The translations under genes were made by a program, and so were the position numbers. DNA of 64,000 bases from a virus (taxonomy: Duplodnaviria; Caudoviricetes), in the IMG/VR virus record IMGVR_UViG_3300042541_000805, positions 55-64,054 of that record; one strand, given 5' to 3'. The notes beneath the pieces were generated by a model that made no database searches, was not told the origin of the DNA, and was given only the letters and a program-made list of their open reading frames with translations. Shown here piece after piece: positions 40,249 through 51,573 of this stretch (position 1 is the first letter of the stretch; each line of letters starts with the position of its first letter).

Positions 40249-40280
40249 ATGATAAGGGTATTATTCATAGCAAATATAAC

Positions 40281-40313: not shown

Positions 40314-43300
40314 TTAATCATCTTTGCCAAATCCATCTTCATTTGACTTTCTTATATCCTTTCGTCTATTTTTATATTGCTCAGCCTTAATTTCATATAA
40401 GAAACCTTGTGACACTTTATTTAAGTTACCTGCAAAACGAGGGTTATAATTTTTATTCCACAATAATACTGCAAGATTTAAAGTTTGTGTTGCCTGCATT
40501 GCTACAGCTTCCCTACCTAATTCTTTATCAAATTGCTTACCATTAGCCATATCAGATATTATATCAGCATTACTAGAAAGTATACCTCCTAGATATGATA
40601 ATCCAGATATAGCTGATGCAGCTTCTACCCCTGCTACCATTCCAATTTTATATTGGGTTGGGTATGAATTTAAAAATAAATTAGCACTTCTACCTGCTTT
40701 TATAGCAGTATTATATTTTGCCTCATTTTCTTTTTTATTTTCACTAAATTGTCCACTTTTCTTTAAGAAGAATAAACTAAGAGCTACAATAGGTCTAGCT
40801 ATGTTTTGGAATCTACCTAATGACATAGTAGTAATAGCACCTAAAAAGTCTTGTGTAAATGCATCACCAGTTAGCCATTGCTCTTTAAATTGGTTATATT
40901 CCTCAACAAAATATTTAGCATCTAATAATTTTTCTTCATCTCTTTCGCCAATTGCACTCCCTATTGTTTCGATCCCAGCTGTAATAAGTCCAATAGCAAT
41001 ATCCATTGTAGCAATGTATATCATTTGTGATACAACAGACCTTGAAATCCTACCCGCTAAAGCAACTGATTTATTATTTCTATTTCCATTGCCTTTATAG
41101 ATATCAACCATCAATGCCTTTATAACTTCTGAATCATTATTATTATACCCAGTTAAGTTAAAAATTGTCCTCATCCATTTATCTTTCCTAGGTATTTTCC
41201 AACGATTAATAATAGGAATTAACGTAATGTATTCTGCTTTAGATAAAGGGTTTTTAGATATTAAGTTTTTAGCAATAAATAAATCTGCTTCGTCCCTAGC
41301 TTTAGTAAACTCTCTAATGTTATCTAGATAATATTTTTGTGGATTTTCGTTATAAGCATTTGCGTCAAATTTTGTACCTGATATTTTTTCAAAGTTTTTG
41401 ATAAATAATGGTAAGTAAGTTTGAGCCACAATAAGTCTATCTGCCCAAGCTGTTTTAATAGCTTTATTCCCTTGTATCATTTGACCCTGAATACTTGCAG
41501 AAGTTTGACCTGCCGTTTTTTCTGCTTCAGACCATAAGAACTCCCCTCCAAGTTGAGTAGCAATTTCATATGCTGCTTTATCTCTATTATTTAACTCCTC
41601 TATATAATCTGCATCATAAGTGTTTGTTAATTTACCAAACTTTTCCTCAACAAATTTCATCATTATTTTAGCACCTTCTTCAGAGGTAGCTACCTTTTCT
41701 AAGTTAGATAGATAATCAGAAGGTTGTCTAATATCATTTGTAACTAATAGCGTATTTTGAGTATTTAATAAAGTACTGATTAATTTATCACCACCCTTAG
41801 ATTGTCCTACTATAAACTCAGTCTGTAGCATTAAACTTATAGAATCTCTACAAGCCGTTAAGAATCTTTGTTCACCCTCAGACTTAGATTTATTCTCCGC
41901 TAATTTTAATGCATCTATTGAGTTTTCTATAATCCCTTTTAGTGAATACTCCATCATAACATCGTTAGAATGCATTTGTAATATTCTTTCAGGATCAATA
42001 ATTCTAGGTGCTAAACCATCACCAACACGACTATAAGTAGCAGATGAATTTTTCTTTAAGTTTTGAAACGCATCAGAACCTTTGCTTATAGATTCTGCAA
42101 AATCTTTCCCTGTTATATCTTTACCTATAGCCCCTGTAGCATATTGTCTTGGTGCATAATTAATAGCAGCAAGGTATTGCTCACCTTTTTTAATTGAGTT
42201 AATCTCAGTAAAAGATTCGTAAGACTTAATAGTTTTTCTAAATACTTTTATATAATTACCTAGAACCTCATCAATCCCTCCTAATTTATTTATTACTTTT
42301 TCAACTCCTTCTGGTGTATGTAAAATTGAATTTTCATTTCCTACAGAAGGATCAAGTCTTTTAATAATATCATATGCTTTTTCATAATCTTTCATTAAGT
42401 CTTCTATTCTCTTAGTAGCATCATCACTTTTAGCATTTTTTATAAAACTATTTTTGTTTTCAATAACATAGCCAGCATAATCTTTATATTTTGCCTTTTC
42501 TGCATTAGGTAAATTTGATATATAATCTAGTTGTTGTATTAAAATAGCTATTGCGTGTTTAACATCTTGCATAGATTTATCATATCCAACAACCTTACCT
42601 ATATCTGAAGTCTTTAAAGAACCTACTACCTTGCCAAAGAAAACTCCTTTTTTAACTTTTACACTTACTTTAAGTTTATCTACTGCATTACTTATTTTTA
42701 CAAATTCAGTATTATTTTTAGCTGTAATAAAATCTTTTCTCGCTAATGCTGTACCATATGGTTGATATATATTATTGTAATATAAATTCACATCACCCAT
42801 TCCTAAGAATGAATCCACATTATGCTTAGCATGAGTAGTCATGATGTTAGATAAATCAGACTTAGTTTTAGCCCCATCATATTCAGAATCCATTTTTTTA
42901 ATATCTTTAGCAAAAGCAGTATCACCTTCAATAACCTTAGCTAAATCGCTTGTAATATCATTCTTAAATAGAATGGTTGCTACTTTGTTATATGAATCAT
43001 AAATCTCAGGATGTACGTAACCTTCCATTGCCTGTTCTGAATAGAACATAAAATCAGCAATCTCTTCTATTGACATCTCATTTAATACATCTTCAGTAAC
43101 GCTATTAGCAAAGGCAGATAAATCAGAACTTAATAATGTAAATGTATCATCACTAACATCAGCATCTTCTTTAAATTGCTTAGATAATGTGTAGTCTTTT
43201 AAATCAACTGCTATATCAGTAGCATCAGATACTATAGATTCTTTAAATTTAGCTATCTCTTCTCTAATAGGTTCAGATAATTCATCTTCAATACGACCTT

Positions 43301-46300
43301 CTACTTCTGATAATAAAATAGGATCAGCTTTAAAATCTGGTAATATTGAATTTATTTTATTAAGTACTCTATTGTATGCTTTAATAGACCTTTTTAATGA
43401 TAAATAATCATCCAAACTTTCTATCTCTTGCTCTGAATCAATAAATTCATTAATATTATCATATGTTTTATTTAATGATTTTGTAAGGTTCTCTTTAGCG
43501 TATTTAACCTCTACTTCTGTTGCCTGATCTTTATTTATTAAGTTAAGTTCTACGAATTTATTTAAATTTTGATAAATCTCTTTTATGTTCATAAACTTAC
43601 CACCATCAGCAGTTTCAGCACCCAAACTATTATAAGTTCTATCTAACGCTTCTTTTAATGATGTTTGCTCAGCAGATAACACCTCATTTATTTTATCTAC
43701 TAAACTAGCCATATTAGGCTTACTTGTTAATAGTTGTTTAGAAACATCAATAAAGTTATCAATATCATTTTCAGATAAGTATTTTAAATTTATCGTCTTT
43801 AATCTAGCAATCAATTGGGTAGCATTACCTTTATTTTTTGTAGATAATGCCTTTTTAATTTTTTGTGCTGTAATATATTTCTCAATAAATTCAGCTTTAG
43901 CCATTATGCTATCTACTTTATTTATAAATAAGTCTAAATTCTTTGTAGAAGAAACTTTAGCAGCTTTAGTAATAAGACCCTTTAAAATGTTTTGTTTAAC
44001 AATTCCTATTTTTTTAGATTTTAAGTAATCTATAGCTGTATTAAATATTTCATCAGAGATTTTCATCTTAGCCTTAGATGTTTCCCTACCTTCAGCTTTA
44101 CCTTGTTTATAAGATATATTTCTGTCTTTAAGGTAGTCTTCAAAACTCATTGAAACTCTTTCTTTTTCTCCTAAGAATTTAACCTTTGCATCATCATATA
44201 TTTTAGTTAATTCAGTTGGGGTATTTCTACCAAAATCTAAATTAAATTTCTTTTTTATTTCTGCTTTAAAGTTATCTATAGATTTTATAGTTTTGTTTTT
44301 AATTCCTTCATAAGCATATTGAGTTAAGTCATTTGCTAAAGGTGATTCTTTTATAGCCTTTCTAGATTTTTGTTCATCTGTAAGTTCTATCTTTTTTGTT
44401 TCATCCTTTATCTTTCTAAATAAAACTTCTTTCGTTTTTTTACTAGCTTTAAACGAAACTTCTTTAGCCCCTAAGATATCTTTTAATGCACCATCAATAA
44501 ACTCTTCTAGCGTTAAATTTTCAACTTGTTTAGGTGTAAGGTTTTTTAAAGAGGGGAATTTTTCTTGAATATATTTATATAACCCAACTAACCATTCTTT
44601 AAATTTACTCTTTTTAGCTGCATCTGTGATAGATTCTCCTCTATTACCAATTAATATAGCTAATGCTTCTTTTTTGGCTTTTAGAGTATCTCCATACATT
44701 TCAGTAGCATCAGAAAACTCTTTTGTTCCTTTAACTAAATCAAGTCCTTTATTAAATAAAGCAGAGTTACTATTTTCAAGTAAATCAATCCAAATGTGAC
44801 CAACCTCGTGAATAGGAGTATTTAAACTACTAAACTCTGGGTTTAAATATACGTGACCATCTTTTGTTAATCCATATACAACTTCATTTTCTTTTACAAA
44901 TTTCTTAACATTTTCTGAATCTAAAACATCACCCCAAGTATTTTCATCTGTAAAGAATTGCACTTTAGGAAAAGATAATTGTAAATACCCGATAATTTTA
45001 TTTAAATCATTTGGAGATTCTCCAATAGGTTTATTCCTTAATACAACATTGTTTAATGCAGCTGGTAGCCCAGCGGAAACCATTTCATTCCCACTAACTT
45101 TTTTACCTTTTCTTTCAGCAGTTAATAATTTATTTACAATATTTCCATATGCAGCTGGCATTACACTAGCTAAATGTGAAGTTTCTTCCAATACGCCTAA
45201 TCCTTGACCTTTTAAAGCAGCAGGATAATTAGGATGTGTTTTAATTATAACTGGCTTATCTTCACTTATGTCTATACCAACAAAACTAATAATATGTTTA
45301 TCGGGTACATTCTCTAGTGATTTATCAGCTAAATTATCTATTAAGTTACCAAGATTAATTCTTTTTATTTCTGCTTTTGGAAGATCTCCTATTAATGCTT
45401 TTGCAACATCTTTTTTAACAGTTAATTTACTTTCACTTGGTATAAGATCTGCCTTACCACTCGTAAATCTAGATATTAATAATGGTCTAGTCCCAATGTC
45501 TAGTTCGGTTGATCTTTTTAAAAGTTCATCAAAAGATTTTACAGTCTTTAATAACTCTAATATTTTTTTATAACCCCTACTTGAAGCCATATCTGCTGGA
45601 GTAGGATCACCATTTGCTTTATTAATTCTTTTTTGTACTACACTTAATTGGTTTTTAATATCTCCTTCAAGTAAATTAAATGCATTTACTTTATTTTCTT
45701 TAGGGATTACACCATCTGATAAGTTGTCAATTATTTGTCTTATTACTGCTTCATTAGATGACATTGCAGATTTACCCATTTTAACAACAGCAACAGGTAT
45801 ATGATTTTTAGGCAATTTGCCATCTGCCCATAACTTATCAAATAATTCTTGGTTATTATTATAAATACTTTTAGCCACATTTAATGTATCTGTAGCTGTA
45901 TCTGTATCTGTATAAGCCCACGCATATCCAGTATTACCTTTTGAATAAGGGAATAAATTACCTCCATTTAAATTATCAATTTTATTACCAGTTATTGGAT
46001 TTACTACATCACCAGTTGTTAATTCATCTGATATAGTAACCATTATTGGAATACCTTTATAATCAGCTATTGTAACAATATTTGGCTGTTTAGCTAATCC
46101 TTTTCTATTTTTGATAGATTTAATGTCTAATTTACCTTTTGATAAGGTAGACTCAGAAGGATCAACTTCTATATTAACCCCTTCTAATTTATTTATTTCA
46201 TCTACAATACTTTCTGTATCTTCAATTACATATTGTTTTTTACTAAATGCAACATCTTCTTTTTTAGCAATCTTTAATTTTTTACCTTGTGATTTATTAA

Positions 46301-49300
46301 TAACATTTACAATGTCCGCAATTGTATTCTCCAAAGAAAGTATAGCAGCCTTTTTAATTTTTACCTGCTCACTAGTTAGTTTACCCTTAGCTAAATTTAA
46401 TGTAGCTCTCTTTAATCTTTCTCTTTTTTGGTTTAATAAATCAAGAAATTGTTTTTTGTTTAAAGAGTTAGGATCACTTTTATATTTTACTTCAATATCA
46501 CTAAGTGGTATTGGAGCTTCTACTACTTCTTGTTTCTTTTCAGCCAACCCTTTTGGGTTTTCTTTTTCAGCAATTTTAGCTTTTTTAGCAGCTTCTTTTT
46601 CAGCAGCTTTAGCTTGTCTTTTAGCTTCTTTATCAAACTCTCTTTTTTGGATTTTATTCCACTTATCTACAAGACCTTTTTGTGCTTCTGCTTTTGTATC
46701 AAAACCATCTTCCGATAATTCTTCCCCATTTAAATCTTCAGCATTCCAAGTAACATTACCTTCCTCATCAATATTCTTGATTAAATTACCAATTGAATCC
46801 CCATCATCTGTAATTAACTCTACTGCTATTTTTGATATATATTCATACTCTCTCCCATTCTCACCTGTCTTATAATCATAATCATAATCTACAGCATTAT
46901 CTTTTGTAAACTTCTCATGACTTACTTGTTTTTCTGTAATTGGAATATATTGTTCAACTTCAATAGTAGGTTCAGCAACCACTTCAGCAACAGGTTCAGC
47001 AACTTTCTCAGCAACTTCTACTACTTCTTGTTTCTTTTCGCTGCTGACAGGGCGATTGCGATTATCTGCTTTTGGCTTCTCGGCTTCCCTTGTGCTCCCT
47101 TTTCTTTCCCCTGCTTTAGGTTGTCTTTCTTTAGTTCCTTTACGTTGAACGATACCGCCTTGCTCACCGCCTTGGGTGATTGGCTTGATGCTGATTTCAA
47201 TGGCATTTTTTTCTTCTTTTAAGTTAGTTATTTCTTCTTCTGTAAGACCATCAGGTTCTGCTAACATAGCATCAATTTCTGCAATCTTATCTTGTTGTTC
47301 TTCTGTTAATGCTAAAGGAGTAGTTACTTCTTGAGCTAAAATAGCATTTATCTCACCTGTTTTATCTGTGAAAATAGCATTTTCTTTTTCAGTTAATTTT
47401 GATTTTTCTTTTACTTTATTAGCAATATCATTTAATCTTTTTTCTGTTACAATACCTTTGTCAACAAAATTATTATATTCTTTTTCAGAAACTACCTCTA
47501 ATGGTTTACCTTTTTCTAAAGTTGATTCTAGTTTTATCCCTTTAGGTTTATTTAACTCCGCCTCTTCAAATAACATAATTCCTTTCAACGGAGAGTCAAT
47601 AGGAGTTATTTTACCATCTATTTCTTTTTCTACACCATATTCTGTTTTACGATATATAATTTCTTTATTATTTTCTATAGTAAAAGCCTGATCATTATAA
47701 AAATCAATTTGTGCTTCTAAATTAACTCTCTCTAATCTATTTTCTCGTGTTGGGTTTAAATTTAATTCATCTAATTTTGATTGTGCTAAATCAATATTAT
47801 CAATAATTTTTTTAATCTCTACAGGTTTTTCAATAGAAAGTTCAGATATACTTTTGAGTTGGTTATCTCTTTCTGCTATCTGAGATTTTATATCATCAAT
47901 ATTAAATTGAATAGGTGCTAGTAATGCAGGATCAATTCCTTTTGCCTTTTCTTCTTCTTGAGCTAAAGCATCTTCCAATACAGTCTTTTCATTTAATATC
48001 TCTAATGCCTCACTTCTTTTTTCCTCTGAAATATTATCAGGGATTTTAAAGTTATTTGTAGCAGATAAGTTAATATATTGTAATGCCTCATCTGCTTCCT
48101 CTTGAGTTATTTGATTTGATTCAGCTTGTTTTTTAATCTCATCAACCATAACAGGTATAGCTTCAGCTCCATTAGGTGCAGATGCTACAGACGCTAAAGT
48201 TCTTTTATCAGTTAAATCTCCTGATATTACAGAAGCAAATCCACCCATAAATCCACCACCAATAGCTTCTTGACCTGCAGCTTTAATAACTCTGCCCATC
48301 ATGCTACCCATAGAGCCATTATCAAATATTGCTTTACCTTTATATTTGTTAAGAGCCTCTTCAAGACCTATAGTAGCGGCTTCTTGTGATCCTCCTGTAA
48401 GACCTTCTATTAAAGCAGCGTCTGTAATTCTTATCCCAGACTTAATCGCTTTTTTAGAAATGGTATTAATAACATTAGAAGCCTCTTGAGATATTAATTT
48501 AGCTGTTATTTTTTTCCCTTGTGATGCTAATCTATCAATAATTAATCCAGTTAATTTATCACTAAAAGCATTAAATGCTTTTGATTTAGAAAACACTTTA
48601 TCAAGACCGTATTTTTCAAGCATAGAATTAACACCACCTACACTAAGTGCAAACATTGATTTTTCAGTTTCAGATAAATCATTAGCAAATTTTGAGTTAT
48701 TAATACTTTGAAGACCCGAATCATATCCTTGAGCAAATAGCCCAATACCACCGGGAATAAGCATTGCAGGAACAGATTCAGCTAAACCTCCTATAGAGCC
48801 TATAACAAAATCATCATCATATAATTTCTTTTGTTCTTTTGATTGCTCTGCTCCAATGGTTTCACCTATAATCTTACGTAGATAAGGAGTTACGCTATTT
48901 CTAATTGCAATTGCTGTTGCTTCTTTTGGAACATATGAAGGAGCTGCTTGGGTAATAAAATCTGTAGCACCTGCTACTACGCTACCTGTTCCAGTTAAAA
49001 GTTTATTATATAGATATTTACTAAATTCAGCTACACCGCCTGTTGCAGCCATTCCCATACCTTCTACGGGAGCATATTGAGAGCTAACTAAAGGTGCATT
49101 TTTAACTTGCTTTTCAGCTTTTCCACCCATACCCTGTACAGGTGCATACATTGAACTAGCAAGTGGGGAAGGAACGGAGCCATTCGAAGACTCGAACCCA
49201 ATATCTTTTTTTTTTAATCCAAATATATTATTGAAATCTTCTACAGATGAACCTATTTGACTTTTATCAAAGAGGCTTCTATCACCAAACTCAGCTTTAG

Positions 49301-49472
49301 GCGTTAATAAAGCATCATAAAGCGTTTTAGCGTTATCTGCATTTGATAAGATTTTAGCAAATTCTTCTGGGTTTGATCCTATTTGAGATTTATCAAATAA
49401 AGCCCTATTTTGAGTACTTGCAGATGGAGTTACCAACGCATTATAAAGGGTTTTTAAATTTTCATTATTCAT
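40314..49472 (-). CDS. Giant (3052 aa) virion / ejection protein with zincin-like HExxH domain
   Basis: Position after muzzle and pilot-like genes; VYGLTKDGHVYLNP...TPIHEVGHIW metallopeptidase-like motif; own -7 box 49492-49499. Confidence 0.8.
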   Translation of the reverse strand: MNNENLKTLYNALVTPSASTQNRALFDKSQIGSNPEEFAKILSNADNAKTLYDALLTPKAEFGDRSLFDKSQIGSSVEDFNNIFGLKKKDIGFESSNGSVPSPLASSMYAPVQGMGGKAEKQVKNAPLVSSQYAPVEGMGMAATGGVAEFSKYLYNKLLTGTGSVVAGATDFITQAAPSYVPKEATAIAIRNSVTPYLRKIIGETIGAEQSKEQKKLYDDDFVIGSIGGLAESVPAMLIPGGIGLFAQGYDSGLQSINNSKFANDLSETEKSMFALSVGGVNSMLEKYGLDKVFSKSKAFNAFSDKLTGLIIDRLASQGKKITAKLISQEASNVINTISKKAIKSGIRITDAALIEGLTGGSQEAATIGLEEALNKYKGKAIFDNGSMGSMMGRVIKAAGQEAIGGGFMGGFASVISGDLTDKRTLASVASAPNGAEAIPVMVDEIKKQAESNQITQEEADEALQYINLSATNNFKIPDNISEEKRSEALEILNEKTVLEDALAQEEEKAKGIDPALLAPIQFNIDDIKSQIAERDNQLKSISELSIEKPVEIKKIIDNIDLAQSKLDELNLNPTRENRLERVNLEAQIDFYNDQAFTIENNKEIIYRKTEYGVEKEIDGKITPIDSPLKGIMLFEEAELNKPKGIKLESTLEKGKPLEVVSEKEYNNFVDKGIVTEKRLNDIANKVKEKSKLTEKENAIFTDKTGEINAILAQEVTTPLALTEEQQDKIAEIDAMLAEPDGLTEEEITNLKEEKNAIEISIKPITQGGEQGGIVQRKGTKERQPKAGERKGSTREAEKPKADNRNRPVSSEKKQEVVEVAEKVAEPVAEVVAEPTIEVEQYIPITEKQVSHEKFTKDNAVDYDYDYKTGENGREYEYISKIAVELITDDGDSIGNLIKNIDEEGNVTWNAEDLNGEELSEDGFDTKAEAQKGLVDKWNKIQKREFDKEAKRQAKAAEKEAAKKAKIAEKENPKGLAEKKQEVVEAPIPLSDIEVKYKSDPNSLNKKQFLDLLNQKRERLKRATLNLAKGKLTSEQVKIKKAAILSLENTIADIVNVINKSQGKKLKIAKKEDVAFSKKQYVIEDTESIVDEINKLEGVNIEVDPSESTLSKGKLDIKSIKNRKGLAKQPNIVTIADYKGIPIMVTISDELTTGDVVNPITGNKIDNLNGGNLFPYSKGNTGYAWAYTDTDTATDTLNVAKSIYNNNQELFDKLWADGKLPKNHIPVAVVKMGKSAMSSNEAVIRQIIDNLSDGVIPKENKVNAFNLLEGDIKNQLSVVQKRINKANGDPTPADMASSRGYKKILELLKTVKSFDELLKRSTELDIGTRPLLISRFTSGKADLIPSESKLTVKKDVAKALIGDLPKAEIKRINLGNLIDNLADKSLENVPDKHIISFVGIDISEDKPVIIKTHPNYPAALKGQGLGVLEETSHLASVMPAAYGNIVNKLLTAERKGKKVSGNEMVSAGLPAALNNVVLRNKPIGESPNDLNKIIGYLQLSFPKVQFFTDENTWGDVLDSENVKKFVKENEVVYGLTKDGHVYLNPEFSSLNTPIHEVGHIWIDLLENSNSALFNKGLDLVKGTKEFSDATEMYGDTLKAKKEALAILIGNRGESITDAAKKSKFKEWLVGLYKYIQEKFPSLKNLTPKQVENLTLEEFIDGALKDILGAKEVSFKASKKTKEVLFRKIKDETKKIELTDEQKSRKAIKESPLANDLTQYAYEGIKNKTIKSIDNFKAEIKKKFNLDFGRNTPTELTKIYDDAKVKFLGEKERVSMSFEDYLKDRNISYKQGKAEGRETSKAKMKISDEIFNTAIDYLKSKKIGIVKQNILKGLITKAAKVSSTKNLDLFINKVDSIMAKAEFIEKYITAQKIKKALSTKNKGNATQLIARLKTINLKYLSENDIDNFIDVSKQLLTSKPNMASLVDKINEVLSAEQTSLKEALDRTYNSLGAETADGGKFMNIKEIYQNLNKFVELNLINKDQATEVEVKYAKENLTKSLNKTYDNINEFIDSEQEIESLDDYLSLKRSIKAYNRVLNKINSILPDFKADPILLSEVEGRIEDELSEPIREEIAKFKESIVSDATDIAVDLKDYTLSKQFKEDADVSDDTFTLLSSDLSAFANSVTEDVLNEMSIEEIADFMFYSEQAMEGYVHPEIYDSYNKVATILFKNDITSDLAKVIEGDTAFAKDIKKMDSEYDGAKTKSDLSNIMTTHAKHNVDSFLGMGDVNLYYNNIYQPYGTALARKDFITAKNNTEFVKISNAVDKLKVSVKVKKGVFFGKVVGSLKTSDIGKVVGYDKSMQDVKHAIAILIQQLDYISNLPNAEKAKYKDYAGYVIENKNSFIKNAKSDDATKRIEDLMKDYEKAYDIIKRLDPSVGNENSILHTPEGVEKVINKLGGIDEVLGNYIKVFRKTIKSYESFTEINSIKKGEQYLAAINYAPRQYATGAIGKDITGKDFAESISKGSDAFQNLKKNSSATYSRVGDGLAPRIIDPERILQMHSNDVMMEYSLKGIIENSIDALKLAENKSKSEGEQRFLTACRDSISLMLQTEFIVGQSKGGDKLISTLLNTQNTLLVTNDIRQPSDYLSNLEKVATSEEGAKIMMKFVEEKFGKLTNTYDADYIEELNNRDKAAYEIATQLGGEFLWSEAEKTAGQTSASIQGQMIQGNKAIKTAWADRLIVAQTYLPLFIKNFEKISGTKFDANAYNENPQKYYLDNIREFTKARDEADLFIAKNLISKNPLSKAEYITLIPIINRWKIPRKDKWMRTIFNLTGYNNNDSEVIKALMVDIYKGNGNRNNKSVALAGRISRSVVSQMIYIATMDIAIGLITAGIETIGSAIGERDEEKLLDAKYFVEEYNQFKEQWLTGDAFTQDFLGAITTMSLGRFQNIARPIVALSLFFLKKSGQFSENKKENEAKYNTAIKAGRSANLFLNSYPTQYKIGMVAGVEAASAISGLSYLGGILSSNADIISDMANGKQFDKELGREAVAMQATQTLNLAVLLWNKNYNPRFAGNLNKVSQGFLYEIKAEQYKNRRKDIRKSNEDGFGKDD
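47021..47206 (-). CDS. Nested +1-frame small basic protein (MPLK...KQIIAIALSAA type)
   Basis: Complete ATG-to-stop ORF inside the giant gene, A-rich start context, resembles a widespread small phage protein pattern. Confidence 0.7.
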   Translation of the reverse strand: MPLKSASSQSPKAVSKAVSFNVKELKKDNLKQGKEKGAQGKPRSQKQIIAIALSAAKRNKK

Positions 49473-49526
49473 ATCAATATCTATATAGATACAAATATAT
49501 GATAATTTTTAATGATTTTACTAGCT

Positions 49527-51525: not shown

Positions 51526-51573
51526 AGTTATTTAAATAATATTACAAATATAATCAATTTTATTGGATAGCGT

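Follow-up and report, generated by a model that had tools for sequence, protein, structure and literature searches.

The window analysed here comprises 64,000 nucleotides (nt) of a virus of the Caudoviricetes (IMG/VR record IMGVR_UViG_3300042541_000805, positions 55 to 64,054) and is nearly the whole of a 64,054-base uncultured virus record that is estimated to be complete; lake-water metagenome runs contain the window's own sequence. One of its genes encodes a giant protein of 3052 residues, and inside this gene, on the same strand and in the +1 frame relative to the 3052-codon open reading frame (ORF; 49472..40314(-)), lies a second ORF of 61 codons whose product is basic, with an isoelectric point of about 10.8 (Table 1). 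A sequence-only reading of the window, which quoted the same peptide, had proposed that this ORF is a real gene tolerated in a flexible linker of the giant protein; its position and its out-of-frame, same-strand placement proved correct, the strand, left unstated there, being the minus strand. Directly 5' of the nested ATG stands AAAAGAAGAAAAAA, with a TAA in the nested frame four codons upstream, and the ORF has a G+C content of 44-49% against about 23-36% in its flanks, an enrichment that the earlier reading had also noticed. No other same-strand open stretch in the alternative frames of the giant gene is as long (65 codons, the next being 50), and the remaining alternative-frame ORFs of this gene look like junk. 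By our own arithmetic about 0.4 stretches of such length are expected by chance, given 9.5% stops in that frame. Length alone is thus not beyond chance, and the case rests on homology and conservation.

The nested peptide matches Pfam family PF20106 (DUF6496) above its gathering score (29.4 bits, cut-off 24, E 1.1e-6, model positions 4-49 of 58), and a six-frame search of the 64,054-base genome for DUF6496 returned the nested ORF as its sole match (28.1 bits). Nine homologous small proteins of 53-64 amino acids (aa), 52-95% identical, have been called as genes among 5.8 billion proteins (E down to 3.6e-26), and a profile search of 1.84 billion representatives gave 283 clusters at E <= 1e-3. 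The 150 representatives listed are 30-205 aa long and carry the domain mostly from residue 1; none of them is a giant or long protein with DUF6496 in frame. These results bear out the suggestion, made from recall, that the peptide resembles a widespread stand-alone small phage protein. It also conforms to the family in being a small protein, of 61 aa, with the domain at its own N-terminus and an MPL start as in its relatives. In an alignment of 64 sequences (A2), which has the window protein in its first row, the residues N21, L25, D28, N29, K31, G33, G37, G40, R43, Q47 and A50, all in invariant columns of the phage subfamily, are kept.

An AlphaFold2 model built from 64 family members (predicted local distance difference test score, pLDDT, 88.8) is a helix-loop-helix, with helices at 11-30 and 45-56 joined by a glycine- and lysine-rich loop. 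A sequence search of the PDB with the peptide gave a best E of 2 and no function, and Foldseek comparison of the model with PDB and BFVD found nothing at E <= 0.001, the two best viral matches looking like members of the same family. NCBIfam held no match, PHROGs matches were to families of unknown function only, relatives sit in clusters named 'hypothetical protein' throughout, and an Atlas search returned only DUF6496 and viral clusters. Neither tblastn with the peptide nor blastn with the region found a match in 50,697 GenBank phage records, which may be explained by a low-complexity filter or by the absence of cultured relatives. In a limited literature collection without supplements, we found nothing on DUF6496 or PF20106, and the arrangement seen here was not described in work on polyvalent proteins with overlapping genes or on dual-coding or nested phage genes. 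From its charge, its size, its late-gene surroundings and its very high conservation across otherwise unrelated phages, and from nothing else, we would guess that the nested protein is a late-expressed binder of nucleic acid or of another conserved host component.

DUF6496 relatives are encoded on at least 229 viral contigs, of which we examined the 80 best loci. The gene is nested in 24 of these, inside a same-strand frame of 1057 to more than 3400 codons, some of these host frames ending at the edge of the locus, whereas in the other 56 it is free-standing, with no long same-strand frame covering it. Three of six loci from metagenome-assembled genomes (MAGs) and four further viral loci are also nested, and the host frame is the nested frame +2 in every nested DUF6496 locus. 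A free-standing copy that is 75% identical (L010) sits between genes for 259-aa and 132-aa proteins, with gaps of 2 and 1 bases. The neighbours of free-standing copies are mixed (140 ORFs, among them major head protein 5, terminase 4, virion protein 4, HNH 4, methyltransferase 3 and endolysin 3), and no single context emerged from them. In 9 of the 56 loci a different giant gene (1300-1692 aa) ends 0.2-2 kb upstream of the small one, and in 7 of these 9 the giant gene has a C-terminal domain that is also present in the nested hosts; the linkage between the small gene and giant genes is a recurring one. An origin by fusion of an N-module gene, the small gene and a downstream gene found no support, as no free-standing locus has the N-module upstream. 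One MAG contig, labelled Chitinophagaceae, carries a shorter nested DUF6496 gene that lacks the glycine- and lysine-rich loop (MPLQSAKGKKAQQQAVSANIRELKASKHKRPMKQIIAIALSAARRNKK), in a frame of more than 1957 codons (L086:5001-5144 (+)).

Selection on the two frames and expression of the nested gene

Across 24 distinct nested sequences, differences at nested codon positions 1, 2 and 3 stand at 0.30, 0.22 and 0.45, as a coding frame would have them and opposite to the order that the host frame would give. Mean identity over the same columns is 0.68 in the nested frame and 0.42 in the host frame, the nested frame being higher in 299 of 300 pairs, and outside the segment the giant proteins are 20-40% identical. 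Host third positions differ at 0.22 inside the overlap versus 0.61 outside it, with the lower value inside in 156 of 156 pairs. When changes were sorted by their effect in 12 disjoint pairs, 173 were silent in the nested frame only (105 opportunities), 45 in the host frame only (108 opportunities) and 112 in neither (277 opportunities); the imbalance between 173 and 45 has a binomial p of 9e-20. The comparison of synonymous constraint in the two frames, suggested earlier as a check, therefore comes out in favor of the nested one. Within the population, all four of the variants listed in the ORF (47048, 47072, 47081 and 47084, seen in contigs of other metagenomes; 194 others exist besides those listed) fall on nested third positions, and by our own reading against the sequence all four leave the nested protein unchanged and replace the host residue. 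At the level of sequence comparison, these data show that purifying selection acts mainly on the nested frame.

The host frame presents the opposite picture. Changes that alter the nested protein occur at nearly equal rates whether the host residue is unaltered (45/108) or altered (112/277), so host residues in the segment seem free to vary, and the linker seems to show no sign of purifying selection beyond the avoidance of stops. In the host frame the segment reads NAIEISIKPITQGGEQGG, of which 13% is hydrophobic versus 31% in the giant protein as a whole; together with its low identity this agrees with the earlier description of a disordered linker, and the segment evolves as an unconstrained one.

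The avoidance of stops is itself pronounced. The frame equivalent to that of the host contains no stop in 23 nested copies and a mean of 5.4 (range 1-10) in 49 free-standing copies, and no nested locus of either this family (25 copies) or the second family described below (80 loci) has a host-frame stop across the segment. Thymine occupies 1.2% of nested third positions in nested copies versus 27% in free-standing ones. A third-position T in front of AAR, AGN or GAN codons creates TAA, TAG or TGA in the host frame, and the purge of T-ending nested codons accounts for the G+C-rich island, which measures 52% in the gene and 36% in the flanks of nested copies versus 43% and 41.5% for free-standing ones. 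This purge implies that translation of the giant protein runs through the segment and, judged by stop counts and codon choice, shows that the giant frame is selectively kept open across it. The +1 frame is likewise free of stops in every nested homologue. The sequence-only reading had called the ORF overprinted: that it is a real nested gene stands, but the idea of a new frame in an old gene does not. The older of the two is the small gene, a family that exists in its own right, and we read the linker of the giant gene as the frame laid over it, since free-standing copies carry 1-10 host-frame stops and nested copies have been purged of T-ending codons.

The start of the nested gene is conserved. 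The pattern ATG-CCN-(C/T/A)TN, encoding MPL or MPI, is kept in 25 of 25 nested copies, as in free-standing proteins, a nested-frame stop lies 2-9 codons upstream of the ATG, and A stands at -3 in 21 of the 25 by our own count. As had been anticipated, homologous giant genes keep an MP-starting basic ORF at an N/D/Y-A motif. The 34 clear gene starts of the genome are A/T-rich and mostly without a Shine-Dalgarno sequence, and by a position-weight score derived from them the nested start, at 6.6, ranks third of 199 internal ATGs and outscores 85% of the 34 real starts, in line with the claim that its A-rich leader resembles those of real genes. The predicted folding energy of the start window is -1.2 kcal/mol, whereas windows at 196 internal ATGs average -6.0 and those at real starts -3.0. 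According to the accessible text of a study in Flavobacterium johnsoniae, low structure and A at -3 favor initiation without a Shine-Dalgarno sequence (PMC6847099).

Altogether, we are confident, though short of certain, that the 61-codon ORF is a functional DUF6496 gene nested in the +1 frame of the giant gene, and we infer that its protein is made by independent internal initiation. We envision a scenario in which ribosomes use one late mRNA of the giant gene in two ways. Those initiating at the giant ATG would read the segment as a flexible, poorly conserved linker, while others would start at the internal ATG, in a context that is A-rich, unstructured and without a Shine-Dalgarno sequence like the starts of the genome, and release a free small protein.

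Several points weigh against this reading. The small protein of the window is 95% identical to that of locus L002 and the giant proteins about 34%, and part of such a high identity could stem from a recent transfer of the segment instead of from constraint over a long time; the changes nevertheless fall on nested third positions. Translation of the nested gene is a prediction from sequence, and the sole RNA run consists of short contigs of relatives 85-95% alike, from a library that may include DNA, and carries no information on transcription of this phage. A Bacteroidota-type mode of initiation, in a putative host of that kind, is deduced from the lack of Shine-Dalgarno sequences at the 34 starts. 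The start-context score is a weak one that mostly measures A-richness, and the A-rich codons upstream are partly dictated by the E, K and N residues of the host protein. Finally, neither structural nor family matches assign the nested protein a function.

Two small gene families at one site

A search with the N-terminal module of the giant protein returned 20 loci, of which 11 carry nested DUF6496, one ends before the site and eight have another ORF in its place. In these eight, a basic ORF of 44-46 codons, MPFKSKQQVK(F/Y)LYSQKPQLAEKWRKENPKQNLKSLPKKVK..., occupies the +1 frame right after the host motif ...ELKTISENAVQ. This second family has no Pfam match and is unrelated to DUF6496 by profile comparison (probability 0.3%); its predicted fold is of moderate quality (pLDDT 71). 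At least 270 viral contigs encode it. All of the best 80 loci have it nested, the surrounding frames being 762 to more than 3400 codons long and the host frame again lying at +2, and ATG stands at the start of the match in 78; more distant members led to 63 further loci, 28 free-standing and 35 nested. The signatures of selection recur. Differences at codon positions 1, 2 and 3 are 0.18, 0.10 and 0.37, identity is 0.81 in the nested frame versus 0.54 in the host frame (nested higher in 2415 of 2415 pairs), T makes up 1.8% of third positions, and G+C content is 50% versus 38%.

The two families alternate within closely related giant genes. L006, which carries DUF6496, and L108, with the second family, match at 90.4% identity along 2292 nt that end 11 nt past the nested ATG, share no similarity over the cassette and then match at 85.7% over the following 1464 nt. 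With cassettes of 186 and 138 nt, the host frame is preserved. By the 150 aa to either side, the locus closest to L006 is L108 (93.7%), nearer than any other DUF6496 locus. A tree of 39 loci, built on the 150 host residues that precede the slot, needs 11 changes of cassette type, at least 9 of them forced by well-supported branches; shuffled labels on the same tree give 12.3 changes on average. In five of five sister pairs with different cassettes, upstream homology stops 11-32 nt after the ATG, which makes the nested start a junction of a mosaic giant gene; some sister pairs differ over the whole downstream part of the giant gene too. One locus (L119:6001-6440 (+)) has a second-family gene and, 190 nt downstream of it in the same frame, a remainder of the C-terminal part of DUF6496 that is interrupted by stops (...KPRSQKQILAIALSKAGVKRK) and looks like the trace of a cassette replacement. 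L119 is the only one among 250 loci and the window to hold both families, DUF6496 being present in 100 and the second family in 151. Ten genomes that are 92-100% complete have one copy of their own family (5/5 and 5/5) and none of the other (0/5 and 0/5).

Read from these alignments and the tree, the two families swap repeatedly at one slot and in the same frame, an exchange that the earlier reading had missed. They may be functional alternatives, which we offer as a lead only, and their exchange in nearly identical giant genes argues against a specific contact between the small and the giant protein.

The evidence from both families bears on other explanations of the nested ORF. A programmed +1 frameshift, or transcriptional slippage on A7, would fuse the first 755 residues of the giant protein to a DUF6496 tail. 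In the window an A7 run does abut the ATG and the nested frame is open from the TAA four codons upstream, and phage structural genes commonly give two products each (lambda G/GT, T7 10A/10B), which we count in favor of such a fusion. However, most relatives lack the A run (CAACAAT-ATG, AAAGATT-ATG, GTTGCAG-ATG), and the 25 upstream sequences have no slippery motif in common and in several loci leave a stretch of only 2 codons. The ATG is also kept in every DUF6496 copy (25/25) and in 78 of 80 second-family loci, free-standing relatives start at exactly the same MPL, and no long protein with the domain in frame occurs among the 150 representatives listed. With A7 not conserved and no common slippery motif, we consider a fusion by frameshift or slippage improbable.

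We think it very improbable that the ORF is an unexpressed relic of a captured gene, or that the segment is conserved for a role as DNA or RNA, for example as a recombination site. The site is indeed a recombination junction, with homology ending just past the ATG in all five pairs, L119 holds a true DUF6496 relic behind the other cassette, and by reasoning alone a host linker poor in hydrophobic residues should let fewer +1 stops arise. Yet a constraint on the nucleic acid would not crowd changes onto nested third positions or yield the split of 173 to 45 silent changes, and every nested copy retains the start, the full length and the family-invariant residues, down to 54% identity, whereas the L119 relic shows decay, with its N-terminal half gone and stops upstream. 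It is harder still to credit a giant ORF that is untranslated across the segment, so that two large genes flank an ordinary small gene and the open frame is incidental: we regard this as extremely improbable, even though the junction acts like a gene boundary in recombination and viral proteins of 300-572 aa in the Atlas resemble the N-terminal module, as a lead only. The absence of host-frame stops from the nested loci of both families (25 copies and 80 loci), set against 1-10 in free-standing copies, does not fit it, and the scarcity of T-ending codons (1.2% and 1.8%) is a specific cost that is explained only by keeping the giant frame open.

We therefore favor a functional small gene within a giant gene that is itself translated through the segment, and with it comes a broader hypothesis to which we would give roughly even chances: that in a large group of uncultured phages, giant genes of the structural module hold a dedicated cassette slot inside the ORF, at which unrelated small basic genes are swapped by recombination, each of them also coding for a stop-free linker. 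If true, accessory genes would have a new kind of locus here, one that gene callers overlook, that an essential host gene shields from deletion and that is co-expressed with this gene.

The giant gene and its surroundings

The giant protein has no Pfam or PHROG family of its own, and its own exact patterns recovered no relative among viral contigs, so that relatives of the gene were reached via the small gene and an alignment (A4). Probably it belongs to the virion or is ejected, with a mosaic build like that of polyvalent proteins, 'virion' being suggested by its position only. The giant protein of one relative (L013) carries LPD23, and the Atlas gave, as a lead only, an LPD22-bearing cluster at 12%. 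In many relatives the N-terminal module ends directly at the nested start. At about residue 1640 (window about 44550 (-)) the giant protein contains HEVGH, a zincin-like HExxH motif, without Pfam support; this may be a peptidase with a processing role, like those known from polyvalent proteins.

Table 1. Positions of the nested gene, its host gene and related features in the window and in related loci
Feature	Position or loci	Strand	Basis or remark
Nested gene, 61-aa basic protein, DUF6496	47021..47206	-	ATG at 47206, TAG stop 47023..47021
Nested start context	47207..47231	-	A-rich, A at -3, almost no predicted structure; putative role in initiation
Host gene, 3052-aa protein, structural module	40314..49472	-	ORF; portal, virion structural and tail fibre neighbours
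Host-frame linker, residues 756 to about 818	47021..47209	-	host-frame reading across nested gene
Conserved N-terminal module, residues 100-580	47733..49175	-	tblastn q120-570, alignment A4, related loci
TATATTTG motif	49492..49499	-	about 20 nt upstream of giant gene's ATG
Second family (MPFKSKQQ...LPKKVKKK), 41-54 aa, basic	L089:4926-5066 (+); L090, L091, L100, L103, L105-L107, L108-L187		
Free-standing DUF6496 downstream of different giant gene	L027/L029, L038, L040, L050, L056, L067, L069, L070		

The motif upstream of the giant gene's ATG also occurs at 51545-51552, at 40271-40278 (-) and elsewhere, shortly upstream of the starts of minus-strand ORFs. We take TATATTTG at 49492..49499 to be a possible Bacteroidota-type -7 promoter element for a late transcript that includes the nested gene, and this motif, together with starts that lack a Shine-Dalgarno sequence, suggests a Bacteroidota host. 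Over the whole window the count of TANNTTTG is not above chance (113 versus 98 expected), and scans for sigma-70 promoters and terminators around the site stayed at chance level. Another TANNTTTG match, at 47465-47472(-), precedes the nested ATG by 259 nt.

Downstream of the nested stop (46956-47020, -) the linker continues as a short (V)AE(K/P)V... repeat made from GTTGCTGAA units. The linker differs in length within the population, since one contig from a metagenome carries 24 additional nt, in frame, at 46987. Antisense to the giant gene, a TTG-started frame of 254 codons is open at window positions 46111-46875 (+), probably as a by-product of composition.

Relation to known gene arrangements and significance

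The closest likeness is to the spanin genes of phages, which occur in embedded, overlapped and separated architectures and of which gene callers usually miss the embedded ones, as set out in the accessible part of a survey (PMC6139136). In lambda Rz/Rz1, too, a small phage gene with its own start (a putative one in our case) is completely enclosed by a larger gene, in the +1 frame, and both embedded and separate arrangements occur among phages, according to the same part of that survey. The likeness ends there. The host here is a structural-module protein of 3052 aa rather than a lysis protein, two unrelated genes alternate at one slot, and one family is both nested and free-standing, whereas the survey text accessible to us reports no spanin family that mixes the embedded with other architectures (PMC6139136). 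As a candidate embedded o-spanin (Rz1-like), the nested protein was rejected, having no cysteine, lipobox, signal peptide or hydrophobic N-terminal stretch.

Classical overprinting of the phiX174 type likewise has two proteins encoded by one segment, with one frame disordered or weakly constrained, as described in the accessible text of PMC8227390. Here the roles are reversed, since the inner gene is old and has independent homologues and the weak 'new' frame belongs to the large gene. A de novo overprinted gene would lack homologues outside the overlap, yet 56 of 80 related loci carry the small gene free-standing (e.g., L010). Phage morons and the exchange of mosaic modules at gene boundaries, reportedly described by Hendrix, Hatfull and colleagues, resemble our locus in that unrelated small accessory genes occupy the same position with breakpoints at their edges. 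Unlike morons, the cassettes studied here are exchanged inside an ORF, and with lengths that are multiples of three they must also encode a stop-free linker.

Polyvalent proteins are giant, mosaic proteins of many modules found among late virion genes, as described in the accessible main text of Iyer et al. 2017 (PMC5512222), in which the words 'frameshift' and 'overlapping' do not appear. The giant protein resembles them in size, mosaicism and virion-module position; LPD23 in L013 is a lead only, and the giant protein of the window matches no such Pfam domain.

These findings add a well-supported instance of gene nesting with the inner gene as the older one, which reverses the usual picture of overprinting. 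They indicate that phage accessory genes may be exchanged inside a reading frame and not only between genes, each cassette answering two coding demands, and they enlarge the territory in which to look for 'hidden' genes. Genes of this kind escape standard annotation, and because the second family is nested in 80 of the 80 best loci, drawn from at least 270 viral contigs, phage catalogues may lack many proteins. Scans for further nested genes could make use of simple signatures, namely the G+C island and the loss of T-ending codons, and two uncharacterised but very conserved small phage proteins gain a setting in which their roles can be tested.

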